64,000 bases of DNA from a virus (IMGVR_UViG_3300021400_001091:1-64000), one strand, 5' to 3'; shown: positions 1 through 8,970, counted from the first letter of the stretch. Numbers and translations are program-made. Notes: generated by a model from the sequence alone, not told the origin.

Positions 1-84
1 TTTTTTCTAAAAGGGGTTGACAATTCCTCTTCAATCGCTTATAATCTAATTGTAAGTTGAAAGTACAACCGAAAGGAGAAGAAA

Positions 85-348
85 ATGACTCATATCGAAG
101 CACTCGAAGTTATGCTCACTCGCAGAAACATCAATTTTAAGGTTGAAGTTCAGCCTTGGTATGGTACTCCGCAGATTATCGTCTATGACGAGAATGGCGA
201 AATCGCGGGCGACGTCATCAGTCACAGTTACAGTTACGGCGGTCCCGATGGGTTGCTTGAAATCATGGGGTTCGGCCTTGACGATGTGAGGGGTTGGCTC
301 ACCGCGGCAAAGGCGTGTTTCATCATCATGGAATACTTGCAGAAGTAA
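85..348 (+). CDS. Early hypothetical protein (87 aa)
   Basis: ORF with AAAGGAG RBS downstream of promoter 17-45. Confidence 0.8.
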   Translation: MTHIEALEVMLTRRNINFKVEVQPWYGTPQIIVYDENGEIAGDVISHSYSYGGPDGLLEIMGFGLDDVRGWLTAAKACFIIMEYLQK

Positions 349-500
349 ACGAAGTGTCAGGCAATTGTCTAAATTGTCTGACAATTCTCCCTTATCCAAT
401 TTCCATATATTGGAAGTAAAAAAAATTAAAATAAATACTTGACAAAAAGTCGTTTTTCTGTTAATATATAATTGTAAAGAGAAGAAGAAAGGAGTCAAAA

Positions 501-659
501 ATGGAAAAGATTCAAGTATTCAAAATCGTAGCCAAGAAAAAGGGCAAGGCGGAAGTTATCCGCTATAGCGAAAAACCGTTTTATGCGTACAAACTGCTTG
601 ACAAGTACGACCGCAAGGGTTATAATGTAACTATCAAAAAGGTTTGGATTCAGATGTAA
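501..659 (+). CDS. Small basic early protein (52 aa), paralog of 1009-1167
   Basis: MEKIQVFKIVAKKKGKAEVIRY...; RBS AAAGGAG; own promoter; not in ORF track because of size. Confidence 0.8.
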   Translation: MEKIQVFKIVAKKKGKAEVIRYSEKPFYAYKLLDKYDRKGYNVTIKKVWIQM

Positions 660-673
660 GAAAGGAAAATCAA

Positions 674-820
674 ATGAGAAAGTTAATCGGAGACATTTTT
701 ACAGGTGTAAGTTTCATCGTCATTTTGTGGGGTTTGGTATCGTGGATTGACATTTGCGCCCACAATCTGAATGGCGGTACTGAATGGAGTTATAACCTTT
801 TTGTTCTTCTCTTTTCCTAA
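674..820 (+). CDS. Small membrane protein (48 aa)
   Basis: MRKLIGDIFTGVSFIVILWGLVSW...; RBS; followed by hairpin GGGCGTCC-GAAA-GGACGCC. Confidence 0.7.
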   Translation: MRKLIGDIFTGVSFIVILWGLVSWIDICAHNLNGGTEWSYNLFVLLFS

Positions 821-1008
821 CAGGTGGGCGTCCGAAAGGACGCCTTCCTCTTCATTGGAAATTGTCTGAATTTTCTGACAATTTGTCCTATGGAGATTGT
901 TAAAAATTTAACAAAGATTTTTTTCTAAAAGGGGTTGACATTTGGCGGCGCGCCGTATATAATAAGATTGTAAGGTAAAAGAAAAACAAAACCGAAAGGA
1001 AGAGAAAA

Positions 1009-1167
1009 ATGGAAAAGGTAAAAGTTTACAAAATCGTTTGCAAGAAAAAGGGAAAGGCGCAGATTATCCGCTATTGTGAAAACTTCGACTTCACCTATAA
1101 ACTTGTTGACAAGTATGAAAGAAAAGGATACAACGTGATTGTAAGAGAGGTCAGCGTGCAGTTGTAA
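1009..1167 (+). CDS. Small basic early protein (52 aa), paralog of 501-659
   Basis: MEKVKVYKIVCKKKGKAQIIRY...; promoter 935-963; terminator GAGGAC-GAAA-GTCCTC-T7. Confidence 0.8.
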   Translation: MEKVKVYKIVCKKKGKAQIIRYCENFDFTYKLVDKYERKGYNVIVREVSVQL

Positions 1168-1451
1168 AATGAAGAGGACGAAAGTCCTCTTTTTTATCCT
1201 CTTCAGTTAGCAAAGACTAACTGAATTGTCAGAAAACTTTCCCTCTTCATGGTTAGCATAGGCTAACTGAATTGTCAGAAAACTTTCCCCTATTAAAAGA
1301 GTCTCCCATTTAATCATATCACACTTGCGCGCCGTTGTCAATAGGAAAATTAAAAAAGTTTTTTTAATTTAGGGGTTGACAAATAGCGTTTTATCCCTTA
1401 TAATTGACTTGTAAGATAAAGAAAGGGTAAAACCCAAAGAAAGGAAAGACA

Positions 1452-1733
1452 ATGGAAAAGAACAAGAATGAAGTGACAGAAGCAACGGCAACGAGGTTTG
1501 AAAAGGTATTTATCAATTTTCAGTATGTAGTCCTTGCCTTGTTAATCGTAGGACAGTGTACCGTAGGAATTGATTTCTTAATCGGACAGGTGGTCTATCT
1601 GGCAGCAAATGGAATCTCGGTTGCTCGGTGTTATGTACTCCATCGACCCGCCGCAGATAAAGTAAAGGATTGGGCGTGTACTGGTATCACTCTCGGACTA
1701 ATCGCCATCAAGTTACTAAATGGATTGGTATAA
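1452..1733 (+). CDS. Early membrane protein (93 aa)
   Basis: Several hydrophobic segments; promoter and RBS present. Confidence 0.75.
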   Translation: MEKNKNEVTEATATRFEKVFINFQYVVLALLIVGQCTVGIDFLIGQVVYLAANGISVARCYVLHRPAADKVKDWACTGITLGLIAIKLLNGLV

Positions 1734-1820
1734 AAAGTTTTGGAGAAAGGGTTGACAAACCCTTTTTTCTTTTGTATAATAAGGTTGTAAGGTAAAGATA
1801 TGAACCGAAAGGAGTTCAAA

Positions 1821-2066
1821 ATGAAAATTGAAATTATTGGTATTGATGGATTAAAAGAATGGTTTGAAGAAGATAGAGAATGGATAGAAAGAGAAAATCC
1901 TAAATTGGCAAAAGAGTGCGAAGAAAAAATAAAGTATCTTGAAGAAGTTAATGGAACGGCAATCGTCTACTTTAAAGACTATGTAAAAATCTTATCTATA
2001 GTAACAGATATGACAAATGGAGAGTACGAGGTTTACAATTGCGGTACAACCATTGAAATTAAATAG
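1821..2066 (+). CDS. Early hypothetical protein
   Basis: Start reset to the ATG after the AAAGGAG RBS; terminator TAGTCCC-GAAA-GGGACTA-T7. Confidence 0.75.
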   Translation: MKIEIIGIDGLKEWFEEDREWIERENPKLAKECEEKIKYLEEVNGTAIVYFKDYVKILSIVTDMTNGEYEVYNCGTTIEIK

Positions 2067-2304
2067 AAAGTAGTCCCGAAAGGGACTATTTTTTTATCCT
2101 CTTCATCGGAAGTTGTCAGAATTGTCAGAAAACTTCCCCTATAGGAGTTAGCATATGCTAACTCAAGTTGTCAGATAATTAAACCGAAGATGTATATTTA
2201 TACGGTAAAATGAATAAATATTTTTTCAAATAAAAGGTTGACAAATTAACAAAATAAGTTTATAATCTAATTGTAAGATAAAAGAAAACCGAAAGGAGTT
2301 ATCA

Positions 2305-2493
2305 ATGATTATTTGTGAAAGTCAGAATGAGGCGCGCATTGAGGCGGTCCATGCTCTTACAAACGAGGACGCAGATGTTAAAACGGTGACAATCTTCTAT
2401 AGGGAAGATATTGGAAAGTGGTGTTGTGAATTTGAGTACTTCTCTGATGAAGAAATGGAAAAAATCGAAGAAATGGAAGAAGAAGAGGATTAA
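2305..2493 (+). CDS. Small highly acidic early protein (62 aa)
   Basis: RBS and own promoter; E/D-rich C-terminus. Confidence 0.75.
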   Translation: MIICESQNEARIEAVHALTNEDADVKTVTIFYREDIGKWCCEFEYFSDEEMEKIEEMEEEED

Positions 2494-2789
2494 TTCCTCT
2501 TTTTCTTTCCTCTTCAAGTTAGCATATGCTAATTGTCAGACAATTTCACATTATGAATTGTTAAAAAATTAACAATCCCTCTTCATTGGTAAAAATTGGA
2601 ATTGTCAGACAATTCCCCCTATACACCGCGCCCACTCCCATTCTACAATATGAGTATAACATGGCGCAAGGGGTTTGTCAAGGGAAAAATTAAAAAAATT
2701 TTTTTTGAAAAGGGGTTGACAAATTAAAAGGCAAGGCTTATAATAAGAGTGTAAGGTAAAGAGAAAGCCAAAGGGCAGAAAGGAATCCA

Positions 2790-3470
2790 ATGGTAAAGAT
2801 TGACAGAAGAAAGAATTATTTCATCACGGTGGACACCGAAACAAGCGGCGATATCACAAATAACGAGCAGTTAGTCTATGATATCGGATGGGCTGTCCAC
2901 GACCGCAAGGGCAATATTCTCGAAAAGCGGTCGTTCGTGGTCTATGAAACGTATTGCTTGCGTAAAGACTTGATGGCAACGGCGTACTACAAAAACAAGT
3001 TACCGCAGTATGAAAGCGATATCAAAGACGGCAAGCGCAAAATTGCAAAATGGGCGACCATCGGGCGGATTTTCCGCAAGGATTGCAAGGACTACAACAT
3101 CAAGGCGATAGTCGCCTATAATGCAAGGTTTGACAGGATTGCAACCAATAACACCGAAGAGTATACCACCAACGGCAAATACAAATACTTTTATCCGTAC
3201 GGTATCGAGTTATGGGATTCAATGAAAATGGCAAGCGATACAATTTGTAAGCAAAAAGAATATAATCGCTTTTGCCGAGAAAATAATTTTATGACACGCC
3301 ACGTAAGACCAAGACCGCAACGGAAAGCCGAAACAGTTTACCGATACATGACAGGCGATACCGATTTTATCGAATCGCATACGGGTTTGGAAGATGTTTC
3401 CATCGAGGTCGCAATCATGGCAGAGTGTTTCAGACAACACAAGAAAATGAGAAAGTTACTTTATGCATAA
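2790..3470 (+). CDS. DEDDh (DnaQ-like) 3'-5' exonuclease, paralog of 6158-6829
   Basis: ExoI DTET, ExoII YNARFD and ExoIII HTGLED motifs. Confidence 0.8.
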   Translation: MVKIDRRKNYFITVDTETSGDITNNEQLVYDIGWAVHDRKGNILEKRSFVVYETYCLRKDLMATAYYKNKLPQYESDIKDGKRKIAKWATIGRIFRKDCKDYNIKAIVAYNARFDRIATNNTEEYTTNGKYKYFYPYGIELWDSMKMASDTICKQKEYNRFCRENNFMTRHVRPRPQRKAETVYRYMTGDTDFIESHTGLEDVSIEVAIMAECFRQHKKMRKLLYA

Positions 3471-4107
3471 GAGTGGATATTTATCCACTCTTTTTTTCGG
3501 GTCGATTGTTAAAAATTTAACAATCGCATAAGGGTGAATTGTCAGAATTGTCTGACAATTCACCCGGGCCGAGTGCGTCCCTCTTCATTATATCACAAAA
3601 GAAAAACAATGTCAATAGGAAAATTAAAAAAATTTATTTTATTTTTTTATAAAAAAGGTTGACTTTTTCACGAATTTTTGGTAATATATAATTGTCAAGA
3701 GAAGATGGGGACGGCGCAGAGAGTTGAGCCACTCCTTGAGGGTTATAGTCGGTGTAAAGTAATCCGGAAAAAGTTCAGATTTTCTCTTGACAAACCACTT
3801 AAAAGGTGGTAAGATGTAATTGTCAAGGGGAGAGAAAGGGAAACAAGGAAAGTTGGAAACAATTTCTCTTCAAAATGCGAAAAAACTCTTTTCTAAAATC
3901 TTTGAAAGTTTTTTTCAAAACCCCTTGACAAAATCACCAAAGGGTGATACAATAAAAATGTCAAGAGAGATAAACGAAACGCCAAGCACATTAAAAAAAT
4001 TAAAAAAATCTTAAAAAGTACTTGACAAATCAAAACAAATCCCTTATAATAAGGGTGTAAGGTAAAAGTAAGGGGTCTACTCCCTCAAGTAGAAGAAAGG
4101 TTACACA

Positions 4108-4431
4108 ATGACTTACAGAGAGTTCTACAACGCCGTCATCAACGGAGAAATCACCGAGGAAATGGTCGAGTTCGCCAAGGGTGCAGTTGAAAAGTTGGAT
4201 GCCCGCAATGCCAAGCGTGCCGAGCGTCCTTCGAAGAAGGCACTTGAAAACGAGCCTATCAAGGCGAAGATTGCCGAGATTCTGACCGATACTCCGCAGA
4301 CGGCAAGCGAAATCGCCGCCAAGGTCGAAATCTCCGTACAGAAGGCGTCCGCCCTTCTCCGTCAGATGGACACTAAGGTTTGCGATGTGAAGATTAAGGG
4401 CAAGGGTACTCAGAAGGGTTACTCCCTCTAA
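4108..4431 (+). CDS. Small winged-helix-like DNA-binding protein, paralog of 7620-7958
   Basis: TASEIAAKVEISVQKASALL helix-turn-helix pattern followed by a beta wing. Confidence 0.65.
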   Translation: MTYREFYNAVINGEITEEMVEFAKGAVEKLDARNAKRAERPSKKALENEPIKAKIAEILTDTPQTASEIAAKVEISVQKASALLRQMDTKVCDVKIKGKGTQKGYSL

Positions 4432-4722
4432 ACCGAAAAGGGGTCGGCGTGCCGACCTCTTTTTTTCGCCGTAAATTGTCAGAAAATTCTGAAAATTCTG
4501 ACAATTCGCCCCTTTTGAATTTTCAGAATTTTCTGACAATTCGCCCTCTTCATTTGTTAATTTTTTAACAATCTTCCGCAAAAGTTTGTTAAAAAATTAA
4601 CAATCCCAATAGGTAGAGTTTTCAGAAAACTTTTCAAAAAAGTTAAAAAAACTTTTTAAAAAGTGTTGACACCCTCTTCATTATGTGCTAATATGTATTT
4701 AGATAAAGAAAGGAGACCAAAA

Positions 4723-5166
4723 ATGGCTAAAGCAATTTACTTCGATATGGACGGCACAATCGCCAACTTCTACGGCGTAGAGAATTGGTTGGAAGATTTA
4801 ACCAATTCCAATCCTCGCCCTTATGCACAGGCGCGCCCACTCGTCAACATGAACGTACTTGCAAGGCGGTTAAACCGTTTGCAGAAGATGGGGTATAAAA
4901 TCGGTATTGTGTCATGGTTAGCAAAAAATTCCAATCCAGATTTTGACAGTGCCGTTACCACCGAAAAAATCAAGTGGTTAAAAACCCATCTCCATTCCGT
5001 CAAGTTCGATGATATTAAAATCGTACCATACGGAACGCCGAAGTCGGAAGTGGTAGAATATGGAAACGGAATCCTTTTCGACGACGAAGAACCAAATAGA
5101 AAAAATTGGAAAGGCGTAGCATACGACGAAAGTAAAATTATGGAAGTTCTCGGGGCGGTCGCATAG
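4723..5166 (+). CDS. HAD-superfamily 5'(3')-nucleotidase-like phosphatase
   Basis: N-terminal FDMDGT motif and C-terminal LFDD motif; start reset to RBS. Confidence 0.75.
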   Translation: MAKAIYFDMDGTIANFYGVENWLEDLTNSNPRPYAQARPLVNMNVLARRLNRLQKMGYKIGIVSWLAKNSNPDFDSAVTTEKIKWLKTHLHSVKFDDIKIVPYGTPKSEVVEYGNGILFDDEEPNRKNWKGVAYDESKIMEVLGAVA

Positions 5167-5564
5167 GCCGTCCCAGTTTTTGGAAGTTCATAAATTGTCT
5201 AAATTGTCTGACAATTTCGCCGTTCGATTGTTAATTTTTTAACAATCGACAAGGCGCAGTTTTCAGAATTGTCTGACAATTTCATCGTGGCTTGTTAAAA
5301 AATTAACAATCCAAATTGTCAGAAAACTTTACCTATTGCCGAGTTAGCATATGCTAACTTAAATTGTCAGAAAACTTACCCTATTAGTAGTTCCACTCCC
5401 ATTCTACAATATTATAATACCATGGCGCAAGTAGTTTGTCAATACTTTTTTCAAAAAAAAGAAAAAAATATTTTTCTAAAAAGGGTTGACAAATACCCCA
5501 AAATCCGTATAATAAAGATGTAAGGTAAATCAAGCGGTTGCCAACGGCAAAGAAAGGAAACCAA

Positions 5565-5885
5565 ATGGCAGTATCTCGCAAGTCTGAACAGGATTTACTC
5601 CGTAACCAGTGGGTGGAAGCCCTCTTCCAGCTTCTGGAAGAGCGTGGCGAAGAAGCCATGCTCACCGCCTCCAACAAAATCGCTTTTCCTGCGGTTGGTT
5701 GTGAGGGCAACGAGGACTTTATCGTCCTCACCGTGTCCGTCCCCAAGGGTGGGCGTGACGGCGAGCCGTACGACGGTTACGGCGAAGCCGAAGCCTACCG
5801 CCTGAAAGTGGCGGAAAGAGCCGAAAAGGCCAAGGCCAAGGCCGAAGCCAAGGCGAAGAAAATCGCCAAGGCCAAGGCCGAGTAG
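5565..5885 (+). CDS. Early hypothetical protein with AK-rich tail
   Basis: RBS AAAGGA; terminator GGAGACCC-GAAA-GGGTCTCC. Confidence 0.75.
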   Translation: MAVSRKSEQDLLRNQWVEALFQLLEERGEEAMLTASNKIAFPAVGCEGNEDFIVLTVSVPKGGRDGEPYDGYGEAEAYRLKVAERAEKAKAKAEAKAKKIAKAKAE

Positions 5886-6157
5886 GCCGAGGGAGACCCG
5901 AAAGGGTCTCCATTTTTTTACATTTTCCAAGTTTACCAACATAAACATTATGTAAACTTGCAAGAGGGCAAATTGTCGAAATTGTCTGACAATTCGTCCT
6001 ATTCCGCTTGTTAAAAAATTAACAAAGTCGGACGGGCGCCCTCTACATAAGAAAAAAGTTTTCCCAAATTGCAAAAAAGTCTTGACAGGTTTTGCGGTCA
6101 TGGTGTATAATCAATATAGAGTTAAAGAGAAGGGCAACGCCCAAAGAAAGGAAAACC

Positions 6158-6829
6158 ATGACTACTAAAATTGACCATCGCCGTTCCTATTATCTGACCA
6201 TCGACACCGAGACCGCCAACGGATTCGATGACCCGATTGTCTACGATATCGGCGGCGCAATCCATGACAAGTACGGCAACGTCTACGAGACTTTTTCCTA
6301 CGTCATTTATGAGACGTTCTACGGCATGCGCGACTTAATGCAGACCGCCTACTATGCTGACAAAATCCCCAAGTATGAGGAAGAAATCAGCAATCAGTCC
6401 AGAGTAGTTGTCCCCTACATCAGAGCCAAGTTGACAGTCCGCAACCTTTGTGAGAAGTACAACGTCAAGGCAATCATCGCCCACAATATGCGGTTCGATT
6501 ATAGGGCAACGACACGGACGCAAAGGTATCTCACCAAGTCCGCCTTCCGCTACTTTCTCCCCTATGGCGTACCCCTTTGGGACACCATGAAGATGGCACA
6601 GGACACCATCTGCAAACAGAAAACGTACATCAAGTGGGCAACCGCCAACGGATATGTCACCAAGTATGGCAAGCCGAGAGCAACCGCCGAAATCCTTTAT
6701 AGGTACATCAGCGGACAGGAAGATTTTTCCGAGGACCACACGGGACTCGCGGACGTGTTGATTGAAAAGGAAATCTTTTCCAAGTGCATGGCTCAGCATA
6801 AGCCGATGAGAAAGGAGTGCTTCGCATGA
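6158..6829 (+). CDS. DEDDh (DnaQ-like) 3'-5' exonuclease, paralog of 2790-3470
   Basis: DTET, HNMRFD and HTGLAD motifs; start reset to RBS. Confidence 0.8.
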   Translation: MTTKIDHRRSYYLTIDTETANGFDDPIVYDIGGAIHDKYGNVYETFSYVIYETFYGMRDLMQTAYYADKIPKYEEEISNQSRVVVPYIRAKLTVRNLCEKYNVKAIIAHNMRFDYRATTRTQRYLTKSAFRYFLPYGVPLWDTMKMAQDTICKQKTYIKWATANGYVTKYGKPRATAEILYRYISGQEDFSEDHTGLADVLIEKEIFSKCMAQHKPMRKECFA

Positions 6830-7154
6830 AGCACTTTCTTCTACCACCATTTGTTAAAAATTTAACAATCGCAGCGGATCCCCATTGTGTCTGAATTTTC
6901 TGACAATTTACCCATATCCATTGTTAAATTTTTAACAATCGACAACGGATTAATTTTCTGAATTGTCAGATAATTTCCCCGCTCTTAATAAAAACACTCC
7001 CATTCTACAATATAAGTATAGCGCCTGTCAAGCATTTTGTCAAGTATTTTTTTAAAAGAAATTTTTTCCAAATTTGGAAATATTTTCCAGAATTACCAGA
7101 AATTTCCTTGGCTTCCAGTTATTGGAGGGACTTCCAGAAATTTCCAGTTCCGTG

Positions 7155-7475
7155 GGAGCTGCGATTGGAAGAAATTTCCAGGAGCTGCGTCAAATTTTAA
7201 ATTAATCCAAATTTTGGGAGCTGCGATTCAAAAATTTTCCAAATTTTTCCAGGAGCTGCGTTGGAGCTGCAAATTTTCTGGTAATTTTTTCCTATTTTGG
7301 GAGCTGCAACCAGGAAAAATTTTAAAAATAAGGTAATTTCTTCCAATTTTCATTTAATTTTTAGTAAAAACTTGACAAAAATTTGTCAAATTTTCTGGAA
7401 ATAAATAGTAAATTTGCAAAAACTCAAATTTTTTGCTATAATATATATGTAAGATGAAGAGGGAAAAGGAGCTGC
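7155..7475 (+). repeat. Seven co-oriented GGAGCTGC repeats in A/T-tract DNA
   Basis: 7155, 7181, 7217, 7252, 7263, 7300, 7468, separated by AAATTTT tracts. Confidence 0.8.
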
Positions 7476-7619
7476 GTTCTCCGCCCCGAGGGAATTAAGA
7501 AGTGAAAACTTGAAAAATTCCGAAAATCTTGCTATAATATATATATAAGATGAAGAGAGAAAAAACCTCTCAAATGTAATTGGCGCTCACGGCCGTATGT
7601 GAGAGAAAGGTTGGTCACC

Positions 7620-7958
7620 ATGACTAAGAGAGAATTCCTGAACGCTGTTGTTGCTCTGAACGTTGAAGAGGTTTCCGATTTCGCTGTTGCGGAGCTGGAG
7701 AAGATGGATGCCGCTAACGAGAAGCGCAAGAACACTCCTTCCAAGAGAGCGCTGGAGAACGCTCCTCTGGTTGACAAGATTGTCAATGAGATTCTCGGTG
7801 AGGAAGCTCTGACCGCGACCGATATCGCGGCTGCTATGGAGATTTCCGTGCAGAAGGCTTCTGCTCTGTGCCGCAAGGCTGTTGCTGAGGGTCGTGCGAC
7901 TTCTCAGGACATCAAGGTCAAGGGCAAGGGAACTGTCAAGGGTTATATCCTGGCGTAG
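7620..7958 (+). CDS. Small winged-helix-like DNA-binding protein, paralog of 4108-4431
   Basis: MTKREFLNAV...TATDIAAAMEISVQKASAL; hairpin terminator GAAGAGAG-CGAAAG-CTCTCTTC. Confidence 0.7.
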   Translation: MTKREFLNAVVALNVEEVSDFAVAELEKMDAANEKRKNTPSKRALENAPLVDKIVNEILGEEALTATDIAAAMEISVQKASALCRKAVAEGRATSQDIKVKGKGTVKGYILA

Positions 7959-7999
7959 TTGAGGGAGAAGAGAGCGAAAGCTCTCTTCTCTTTTATTGT

Positions 8000-8970
8000 A
8001 TGTAAGGGAAATTTCTGGAAAGAGAGGAAAAATTTGGAAATTTTGTACGTTTTTAACGTTTTTCGATAAAAAATTAACATTTTTAATTAAAAATTTGACT
8101 TTTGTCGTGTGCTGTGGCACCCAATTTTACCCAATTCATATAGCCAATCCAATCTATCTCAGATATCCCCTACGGAACTACCTCAGCCCCTCCACCTACG
8201 TCCGCATCCATTTTCAAGGGCAACGTATACGTATATCGTATACATTTATTGTATACATTTTAAAGCTACGACCCAAGGTTATCCGTTCGGTTATCCTCCG
8301 CTCCCTATTTATATATATATGTTGAAAGCTGCGTTGCCAGCTCTACCCTATGTAAGCTGCGCCAGGTTGAATTTAAAAGCCATCCTTATATATATACGTT
8401 AAACCAGCTACGTTTAATCCGTTGGAGCTGTAACGGACTTTTTATATATACATAATAAAATAAGCGTCCCAAGGTTGATACCAGCTACGACTATCCGTAG
8501 ATTGCGCCAGTTCAACGTTGAAACGCGTTTATTTATATATACTTTATATATATACATTGTAAGTCTTGTTATATGTATACGTCTCGCGGCTTGGTCTTGG
8601 ACTGCGGGACTACGCCCTTGCCAAGATCTGCGCGCGATTGGCGTCTCTTTGGATTGAGAGTTCTTATTACGTATACATATTATATATACGTATTACTTAT
8701 ACGTTATATATATTTAATTTTCTTATTTGATTTTAAGTAGATTTTAGTTAAAGTTCCTATAATTTTTTGAGACCCGAAATTTTTGGAAAATTTCTTGGAA
8801 AATTATTCCTACAAAATTATTCCTCGGCTAAGATTTTTGGAAAATATTTCTAGAAAAATTCTTGGAAAAATTCCTGGAAAATATTTTACGTTGACTGCGC
8901 CGGCCCGTAATTTTTCCCGAAAATATTCCCATAATTAAAAGAGGGCTTCCAAAAAAAGTCCTCTAAAAAT
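8000..8970. other. Non-coding low-complexity region at the +/- strand switch (candidate genome terminus, packaging or origin region)
   Basis: TATATATAC-type and TTTTGGAAAAT-type repeats; only spurious ORFs; convergent transcription meets here. Confidence 0.45.

Follow-up and report, generated by a model that had tools for sequence, protein, structure and literature searches.

Phages are known to carry host-factor sites, each time for a single regulator, that switch phage promoters. In the Bacillus phages phi29 and Nf, Spo0A represses early promoters and also blocks replication initiation (PMC2731898). The CtrA sites of Alphaproteobacteria phages lie in terminal repeats and gap regions, serve one cell-cycle regulator without a mix of regulators and are interpreted as a means of lytic deferment; that paper uses none of the words titrate, decoy or sequester (PMC9437464). 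For the injection-stop region of T5, with its 8 DnaA boxes, a physical action not via promoters has been proposed, in one compact, conserved block for one protein (bioRxiv 10.1101/866236). The T4-type PeSLs consist of a promoter and a stem-loop, and the abstract describing them reports neither host operators nor back-to-back gene-less promoters (PMC2839356). A search of the open-access literature found no description of phage multi-repressor operator arrays or decoys.

The DNA studied here (IMGVR_UViG_3300021400_001091:1-64000; hereafter the window, the whole stretch of 64,000 nt that was analysed) comes from a large ruminant-gut phage. Its early region is a string of cassettes, each consisting of a gene, a terminator, a block of host operators, an optional leftward promoter and a strong rightward sigma70 promoter. 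The features are as follows, with "iron box" denoting a predicted iron-repressor operator.

363-386, unstranded: CodY-type tandem of boxes at 363 and 372 (9-bp offset); rightward promoter at 439-467
847-914, unstranded, past a terminator: polar 8-mer at 847, CodY tandem at 860-883, Rex box at 897-914; promoter at 935-963
1198-1284, unstranded: 8-mer at 1198, iron box at 1206-1221, CodY box at 1224-1238, 8-mer at 1242, iron box at 1252-1267, CodY box at 1270-1284
1313-1341, minus strand: gene-less leftward sigma70-type promoter, the nearest CodY box ending 28 bp past its -10
1376-1404: rightward promoter, back to back with the leftward one at 1313-1341
2098-2180, unstranded: 8-mer at 2098, CodY tandem at 2111-2134, iron box at 2147-2162, weaker CodY box at 2166-2180; promoter at 2238-2266
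2509-2614, unstranded: 8-mer at 2509, iron box at 2518-2532, CodY box at 2531-2545, Rex box at 2558-2575, 8-mer at 2578, CodY box at 2600-2614
2653-2681, minus strand: leftward promoter, CodY box 38 bp past its -10; rightward partner at 2716-2744
2790-3470, plus strand: gene for a DEDDh-type exonuclease-like protein of 226 aa, the family marker; paralogue at 6158-6829, 48% identical
3506-3587, unstranded: Rex box at 3506-3523, CodY tandem at 3537-3560, 8-mer at 3580
3587-3615, minus strand: leftward promoter, CodY box 26 bp past its -10
3659, 3787, 3925 and 4022: four rightward promoters after the leftward one at 3587-3615
4108-4431, plus strand: gene for a winged-helix protein of 107 aa, a candidate phage binder; paralogue at 7620-7958
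4474-4631, unstranded: CodY triple at 4474-4506, CodY tandem at 4518-4541, 8-mer at 4545, Rex boxes at 4554-4571 and 4586-4603, weaker CodY box at 4617-4631; promoter at 4666-4694
5193-5376, unstranded: CodY tandem at 5193-5216, Rex box at 5228-5245, CodY tandem at 5258-5281, Rex box at 5292-5309, CodY box at 5314, iron box at 5343-5358, CodY box at 5362-5376
5414-5442, minus strand: leftward promoter, CodY box 37 bp past its -10; rightward partner at 5486-5513
5980-6025, unstranded: CodY box at 5980-5994, Rex box at 6008-6025; promoter at 6082-6111
6851-6975, unstranded: Rex box at 6851-6868, CodY box at 6894-6908, Rex box at 6921-6938, CodY tandem at 6952-6975
7015-7043, minus strand: leftward promoter, CodY box 26 bp past its -10
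7155-7475, plus strand: seven clustered polar GGAGCTGC repeats, directly beyond the operator region

A sequence-only reading of this DNA had described some 19 clusters of a CodY-type pattern, AATT(G/T)TC(A/T)GA(A/C)AATT, about half of them paired at 9 bp, together with 10 perfect copies of a Rex pattern, TTGTTAA-N4-TTAACAA, and no such density after 7 kb; the counts bear this out. The CodY-type pattern has 11 exact matches in 1-7000 versus 0 in the other 89.5 kb of the contig. Allowing at most 1 mismatch gives 17 boxes in the early spacers (1-7050) versus 1 in the remainder, and at most 2 mismatches yield 21 clusters, of which 2 are doubtful (352 and 2556). A partner at exactly 9 bp accompanies 9 of the 17 strong boxes, with none at offsets of 4-8 or 10-15. 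The whole contig holds exactly 10 perfect Rex boxes, all in the first ~7 kb, and 0 in the remaining about 89 kb even with 1 mismatch allowed. All sites are intergenic (0 of 3887 coding bases hold one). The reading had also proposed a comparison with shuffled sequence, and 500 dinucleotide shuffles of the spacers never exceed 1 CodY box, with a mean of 0.04, and contain no Rex box. What it omitted is a third palindrome, GTTAG-N6-CTAAC, with 5 copies in the early-region spacers. The polar 8-mer has 10 copies in the early region; a Chi/KOPS-like role for it and for GGAGCTGC was rejected, neither being over-represented in 400 kb of an Anaerovoracaceae genome (G006), which is perhaps not the host. 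The array extends ~2.7 kb leftward past the contig start on a second record (L009), which shares 107 identical bases with the window start and contributes 15 further CodY and 3 further Rex boxes, for a phage total of 32 CodY and 13 Rex sites in about 10 kb.

CodY senses branched-chain amino acids as well as GTP, and Rex senses the NADH/NAD+ ratio. The phage Rex pattern is the published clostridial Rex consensus, an 18-bp palindrome (PMC5367854), and the 9-bp offset corresponds to the 6-nt overlap needed for cooperative CodY binding (PMC10415144). An exact match to the CodY consensus, as implied earlier, does not hold: within 2 mismatches of the canonical box there are 20 sites (shuffles give at most 3), 0 of them identical to it; in most, position 5 is G or position 11 is C. 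The same variant is present in the likely host family, the Anaerovoracaceae, a placement made solely from the names of endolysin homologues. Each motif passed a regulon test in this family. In 46 genomes of what is a codY-bearing but itself putative host group, the CodY box gives 191 matches versus 55 for a control. Of the sampled matches, 23 of 29 are intergenic, and the amino-acid transport and nitrogen genes behind the boxes (chosen by eye for Pfam checks) include those for permeases of the SNF and amino-acid types and for peptide-binding proteins, as well as gdh, glnA-III and formiminotransferase. The Rex box precedes thiolase (thl, four times), hbd (twice), crt, bcd, rex, ackA and Fe-ADH. 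The third palindrome precedes feoA, feoB and DUF2325 and lies 70-370 bp upstream of a DtxR-family gene in four genomes (G006, G349, G377, G083), which points to a predicted operator of a short DtxR-family iron repressor of 125-131 aa; a literature search found no published consensus for a clostridial DtxR-family iron regulator. An exact CodY tandem searched across GTDB genomes was too strict as a regulon test; most of its matches fell in a Lachnospiraceae CRISPR leader, in Campylobacter repeats or in phage contigs. No codY, rex or DtxR-family gene was found in the phage contig.

Operators occupy 575 spacer bases and RNA-polymerase zones 1456, with 3 bases common to both. This is not the phi29-type arrangement, in which host-factor sites are placed to repress early promoters. 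The earlier statement that most sites miss the rightward promoters was right about avoidance and understated it, as none of the counted window sites, including 0 of 10 Rex boxes, overlaps a strong promoter core. In the host family, 14 of 40 iron boxes do overlap a promoter core. Because the sites lie outside the polymerase footprint, the phage promoters would not be shut by them, and the phage Rex boxes are Rex-type sites rather than classical operators of the adjoining promoters. Consensus-grade host operators kept clear of promoters suggest that the phage array probably acts as a sink for host repressors or recruits them in some other way; from the motif and regulon matches, binding or recruitment of host proteins by the spacers appears very probable.

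The reading preferred here, tentatively, is that the array serves as a decoy which derepresses host supply regulons as phage DNA replicates. The blocks would act as docks for three host repressors, CodY, Rex and the short DtxR-family iron repressor. Host-family chromosomes hold, at no more than 1 mismatch, a median of 3.5 CodY sites and mostly 0-3 Rex sites; since near-perfect sites are more numerous per phage genome than per host chromosome, replicating phage DNA could draw the repressors off host operators. Derepression would then raise the import of amino acids, nucleobases and Fe2+ and increase butyrate/acetate energy metabolism. The abundance of CodY counts against a decoy: S. aureus has about 1,900 molecules per cell (PMC4921807), and the 49 CodY dimer sites of each phage genome would take up about 5% of CodY until some 20 copies are present. 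Rex and the iron repressor, if of low copy number, would be saturated after a few genome copies and CodY after tens. Exclusion from polymerase footprints and the consensus grade of the sites favor a decoy. The phage also encodes NrdD and NrdG, the latter an Fe-S activase, which counts for a decoy as well.

A different use is suggested by the leftward promoters. In all 7 that face the array, a CodY box lies 26-28 or 37-38 bp downstream of the -10, two distances that differ by one helical turn, and in three relatives (L030, L016, L023) the iron box spans the start site, at 8-10 bp from the -10 of the leftward promoter. A sponge does not need such fixed spacing. Bound repressors might instead act locally, so that early expression tracks nutrient, redox and iron state, either as a roadblock on the gene-less leftward promoters (100-250-nt RNAs or antisense transcription) or by upstream modulation of rightward promoters. 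We judge this host-state sensor unlikely. No rightward core is overlapped, whereas Rex and DtxR proteins repress through steric occlusion; a leftward promoter is missing from half of the spacers that carry operators; the number of sites is far above the needs of local control; the signals vary among close kin; and no tyrosine integrase was found in the two incomplete records G000 and L009. Precedents for a sensor do exist in Spo0A on phi29 (PMC2731898) and in CtrA sites (PMC9437464). An RNA-hairpin reading of the leftward transcripts was rejected; they fold better than shuffles, but the palindromes guarantee that, and only 2 of 10 Rex boxes have symmetry extended by at least 3 bp.

About 130 related loci share the layout with other occupants (LexA, HisR-like, cre, parS). 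Boxes for further host repressors occur in relatives, in some cases within gene-free blocks, and one relative has parS. In the Enterococcus phages EF1 and H1 the Rex variant is of the Bacilli type, and cre is present as well; in H1 a homologue of the exonuclease-like family marker is annotated as exodeoxyribonuclease. This family-wide layout with swapped host operators and a host-matched Rex variant makes recruitment of host proteins likely. The repertoires are scattered over the exonuclease tree, a quick tree of a gene that lies in the shuffling region. Swapping between unrelated signals counts against a decoy.

Such mobility might mean that the motifs spread with recombination spacers as a by-product of cassette duplication and need bind nothing. 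As in PeSLs, promoter and terminator are repeated and genes are exchanged between copies, here between homologous spacers of two close strains. In these strains CodY and iron boxes are gained or lost as blocks and are conserved no better than other spacer DNA, which also speaks against a decoy (Fisher p 0.09; Rex, 1 change in 112 bases; the differences are block swaps). The by-product account is nevertheless very unlikely, given that flanks diverge while arms stay invariant among Rex and CodY copies, motif order and number differ in every spacer, at least 6 different host operators of known kind are found again in separate lineages, and the type of Rex box follows host class.

The winged-helix paralogues had been named as an alternative binder. 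The phage encodes two such proteins, and a phage-encoded protein could in principle bind all three palindromes; the polar 8-mer, which has no host match, may be a phage-protein site, as may a 19-bp palindrome that occupies the equivalent slot in 29 related loci. That palindrome occurs in 0 of 151 Clostridia genomes and is not enriched in 251 Bacillota genomes, and no host factor could be matched to it, its best chromosomal match being a terminator-like hairpin; its lack of a host match is a further point against a decoy. A phage binder of the three palindromes is very improbable. Four relatives (L020, L029, L252, L262) have near-identical recognition helices and different motif sets, each of the three motifs leads to a coherent host regulon, and across 129 loci the protein families that correlate best with any motif contain no conspicuous HTH family, as judged from sequence only.

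Interchangeable occupants in a retained slot, including parS and the 19-bp motif, also fit occupancy as such, in which any tight, ready-made host DNA-binding protein would coat DNA near a genome end and there act as an entry ratchet, shield the DNA from nucleases or silencers, insulate cassettes from one another or provide a localisation handle. The operators fill the space from terminator to polymerase zone and do not enter the latter. The terminase belongs to the SPbeta/c-st/Kirov group, and Kirov has 284-bp terminal repeats, with small genes that point towards the end and lie upstream of the sigma-factor gene, terS and terL; by analogy, a genome end in this phage may lie near 8-9 kb. Occupancy is rather unlikely, as operators cover just 18% of spacer bases, three cultured relatives by terminase show no such arrays in their left 15-25 kb, and ligand-gated repressors make poor constitutive coats.

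To return to the decoy, both motif assignments of the sequence-only reading are supported, and its decoy is tentatively preferred to its sensor. It is quite conceivable, if short of probable, that a large family of gut siphophages reprogrammes host metabolism by DNA alone, with interchangeable perfect-operator blocks titrating several global repressors simultaneously, here those of amino-acid, redox and iron control. A decoy of this kind would match auxiliary metabolic genes in effect without needing a protein, and it would scale as phage DNA replicates; more broadly, a multi-repressor array clear of promoters would be a different use, with host takeover or DNA handling encoded in non-coding sequence that annotation overlooks. 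Array function is directly testable because cultured relatives share the design, EF1 and H1 each having the Rex and CcpA boxes of its own host. Such motifs can also hint at the hosts of uncultured phages, and the third palindrome indicates a clostridial iron regulon for which no published consensus was found.

Compared with known systems, the sites resemble the operators for CodY, Rex and DtxR-family proteins on clostridial chromosomes in sequence, symmetry and the CodY 9-bp tandem (PMC10415144, PMC5367854); the chromosomal sites are mostly imperfect, few and often on promoters, whereas those of the phage are near-perfect, dense and promoter-avoiding. With T4-type PeSLs the array shares a repeated strong sigma70 promoter and terminator between small genes and the shuffling of genes, as far as the abstract describes them (PMC2839356). 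As in T5, host-protein sites lie in untranslated DNA, possibly likewise near a genome end (bioRxiv 10.1101/866236), here spread over about 10 kb with variable occupants. The CtrA phages are alike in their high-scoring host-factor sites in intergenic or terminal DNA, of convergent origin (PMC9437464). Spo0A boxes likewise place host-regulator sites in the early region of a lytic Firmicutes phage (PMC2731898); in contrast to phi29 and Nf, the present array combines sites for three metabolic repressors, dozens in number, outside polymerase footprints and in a set that varies among relatives.

The operator array of the early region is a real feature. The source contig is viral, linear and 96.5 kb long, and the window is its first 64 kb. 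Small + strand genes occupy positions 1-8000, and most of them come with a terminator and a sigma70 promoter close to consensus. The sequence-only reading had described dense CodY-type and Rex palindromes in the first 7 kb, and the counts bear this out: within 1-7000 the CodY-type box occurs 11 times exactly and 17 times at up to one mismatch, compared with 0 and 1 in the rest, and the Rex pattern in 10 perfect copies compared with 0 elsewhere. Every one of these sites is intergenic, and 500 spacer shuffles, a control of the kind proposed, yielded at most one CodY box and no Rex box. The pairing of CodY boxes at a 9-bp offset was likewise recovered, with an exact 9-bp partner for 9 of the 17 strong boxes and none at neighbouring offsets; this offset means a 6-nt overlap, an arrangement under which CodY can bind cooperatively (PMC10415144).

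Two additional motifs lie in the early region: the palindrome GTTAG-N6-CTAAC, present five times, and a polar 8-mer, present 10 times on the + strand only. The 8-mer is sited after terminators and within promoter spacers. It is common to ∼18 related loci, and no over-representation was found in 400 kb of the Anaerovoracaceae genome G006. A further polar cluster, with position and strand kept in 14 relatives examined, is followed by AT-alternating tracts in a zone of converging transcription that is a candidate genome end or origin. The phage terminase is a member of the SPbeta/c-st/Kirov group; by comparison with Kirov, a genome end would lie near 8-9 kb.

26, 847, 1198, 1242, 2098, 2509, 2578, 3580, 4545, 4673 (+): 8-mer CCTCTTCA
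7155-7475 and 8260-8490: cluster of polar GGAGCTGC and the AT-alternating tracts that follow, at the close of the early region

The 8253-bp contig L009 shares 107 identical bases with the window start and, at 94.5%, also overlaps the contig end; these overlaps assign it to the same phage or a close strain. By bridging the two (the terminase lies at the contig end) it gives a circle of ∼104.6 kb. It also contains further cassettes and the genes upstream of terL, and it extends the array ∼2.7 kb leftwards, which brings the totals over ∼10 kb to 32 CodY boxes (49 when partners are counted) and 13 Rex boxes. The region recurs at 96-98% identity on L227, another metagenome contig, and the array is therefore no assembly artefact. 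The window and L227 represent two close strains in which small genes have been replaced or added between homologous spacers (window 1821-2493, L227:2110-3400).

The nearest named homologues of the endolysin belong to Anaerovoracaceae (Family XIII) and Eubacteriaceae, a lead to the host and not an assignment. Anaerovoracaceae genomes were scanned for Rex and the third palindrome (81 genomes) and for CodY (46 genomes). The Rex motif, which agrees with the published clostridial consensus (PMC5367854), precedes genes for thiolase (4 loci), hbd (2), crt, bcd, rex, acetate kinase and Fe-ADH. CodY is encoded in these genomes, and its motif gives 191 matches versus 55 for the reversed control; 23 of 29 sampled matches are intergenic, with SNF and amino-acid permeases, peptide-binding proteins, glutamate dehydrogenase, glutamine synthetase III and formiminotransferase among the genes behind them. 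The third palindrome, present in 39 of the 81 genomes and far above control, precedes feoA, feoB, DUF2325, DUF6110 and DUF3793, and in four genomes a short DtxR-family repressor gene lies directly downstream. This regulator is 125-131 aa long, and the iron regulon (loci L138-L167) comprises feoAB, DUF2325, DUF3793, DUF6110 and ABC transporters. The palindrome is taken to be the operator of this iron repressor; a literature search for a published consensus for the clostridial iron regulator's palindrome found none. CodY, Rex and DtxR domains were sought in the phage contig, and Rex and DtxR in L009, and none were found. Judged from sequence, the phage DNA is likely to recruit the host CodY, Rex and iron repressor.

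The position of the sites relative to promoters bears on their purpose. With the polymerase zone defined as ∼-60 to +20, the 3163 spacer bases include 575 operator bases and 1456 polymerase-zone bases that overlap at only 3, in line with the sequence-only reading that most sites do not overlap the -35/-10 of the rightward promoters; the phage sites are therefore not classical operators of the early promoters. At the same threshold, 14 of 40 host iron boxes overlap a promoter core. Five gene-less leftward promoters lie back to back with rightward ones, the paired -35 elements 35 or 44-46 bp apart, or at the region end. In seven of seven array-facing cases (L009 included) the nearest CodY box ends 26-28 or 37-38 bp past the leftward -10, and in three relatives an iron box spans the leftward start site. 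Nothing else speaks as strongly for local gating. As the purpose of the array, however, local sensing by way of the leftward promoters, which would account for the fixed spacing, is considered unlikely.

A decoy that titrates host repressors is tentatively ranked first, because the sites are near-perfect, numerous and promoter-avoiding, their repressors govern supply functions, and the phage encodes an anaerobic ribonucleotide reductase (with its activase). Comparable chromosomal sites in Anaerovoracaceae have a median of 3.5 per genome for CodY and are mostly 0-3 for Rex; the more numerous phage sites would draw off repressors of supply functions while keeping clear of promoters. Protein abundance limits the claim. 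In S. aureus a cell contains ∼1,900 molecules of CodY, and small-regulon factors number 50-100 (PMC4921807); at such abundance one phage genome would bind ∼5% of CodY, so that CodY titration would need phage replication. If they are as scarce as small-regulon factors, early saturation would be possible for Rex and the iron repressor. Decoy, occupancy and local-sensing roles can coexist.

Searches with the exonuclease and a 106-aa protein led to ∼130 related loci in which the dense promoter layout is kept and the occupants vary: 12-17 copies of LexA boxes, HisR-like boxes, Rex, CodY and the iron box (up to 34), with parS alongside CodY in one relative. The names LexA, HisR, cre and parS are putative, given by resemblance to the consensus of each site. 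Enterococcus phages EF1 and H1 each carry six Rex boxes, all of the Bacilli type, and 4-5 cre sites, partly within a 1-kb gene-free block; the ten Rex boxes of the window are all clostridial. A quick exonuclease tree shows the CodY and Rex sets dispersed over its branches. Interchangeable occupants would be accounted for if occupancy as such were the purpose, whichever host protein is bound, a reading rated as unlikely. Neutral cassette spread fits poorly and is improbable. Binding of the palindromes by a phage protein fits poorly too and is highly improbable: across relatives the recognition helix of the winged-helix protein is almost unchanged while motif sets differ, which counts against this protein as the binder. 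A caution comes from 29 related loci, where the operator slot is filled by a 19-bp palindrome, mostly ≤20 bp upstream of a -35 element. None of 151 Clostridia genomes contains this palindrome and 251 Bacillota genomes show no enrichment of it; its owner may be a phage protein or an unsampled host. Half-sites recur in another branch of the phage family.

L005, L028, L034, L045, L055, L267, L270 and other loci: 19-bp palindrome TTAGACGT-N3-ACGTCTAA, up to ∼30 copies
L001-L008, L025, L051, L058-L085: TTGCACAA/TTGTGCAA half-sites and GC-rich hairpins, adjoining leftward promoters
L176 (G003:C1), 140-kb phage contig of a Peptococcaceae-labelled MAG: 17 CodY boxes, four perfect parS, repeated GGTAAAATTTACC palindrome

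A conserved tandem CodY-type box also lies in CRISPR leaders, ∼60 bp from the first repeat, in L109 (898-921, 6869-6892), L101, L114 and ∼ten other Lachnospiraceae loci, beside arrays of 37-bp repeats with a 72-75-bp period. CodY may control or shape these arrays, and in a host with such a leader immunity could be affected by a CodY decoy. Three leftward transcripts of the phage share a predicted 12-nt leader (2637-2650, 5398-5411 and 6999-7012, - strand) whose likeness to one end of the Lachnospiraceae CRISPR repeat, allowing for a one-base gap, is probably due to chance.

A literature search for multi-repressor operator arrays found no paper. The present case adds that all three motifs were put to a regulon test in a candidate host family, that a putative iron operator was identified, that the sites are almost entirely kept out of polymerase zones, and that in cultured kin the Rex variant matches the class of the host. 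Spo0A on phi29 (PMC2731898), CtrA (PMC9437464) and DnaA boxes in T5 (10.1101/866236) each involve one host factor, whereas the window array has candidate sites for multiple repressors. The cassette layout is that of PeSLs (PMC2839356), whose abstract mentions no host operators, and the gene exchange between window and L227 resembles PeSL shuffling. If titration were proven, the array would be categorically new among these systems.
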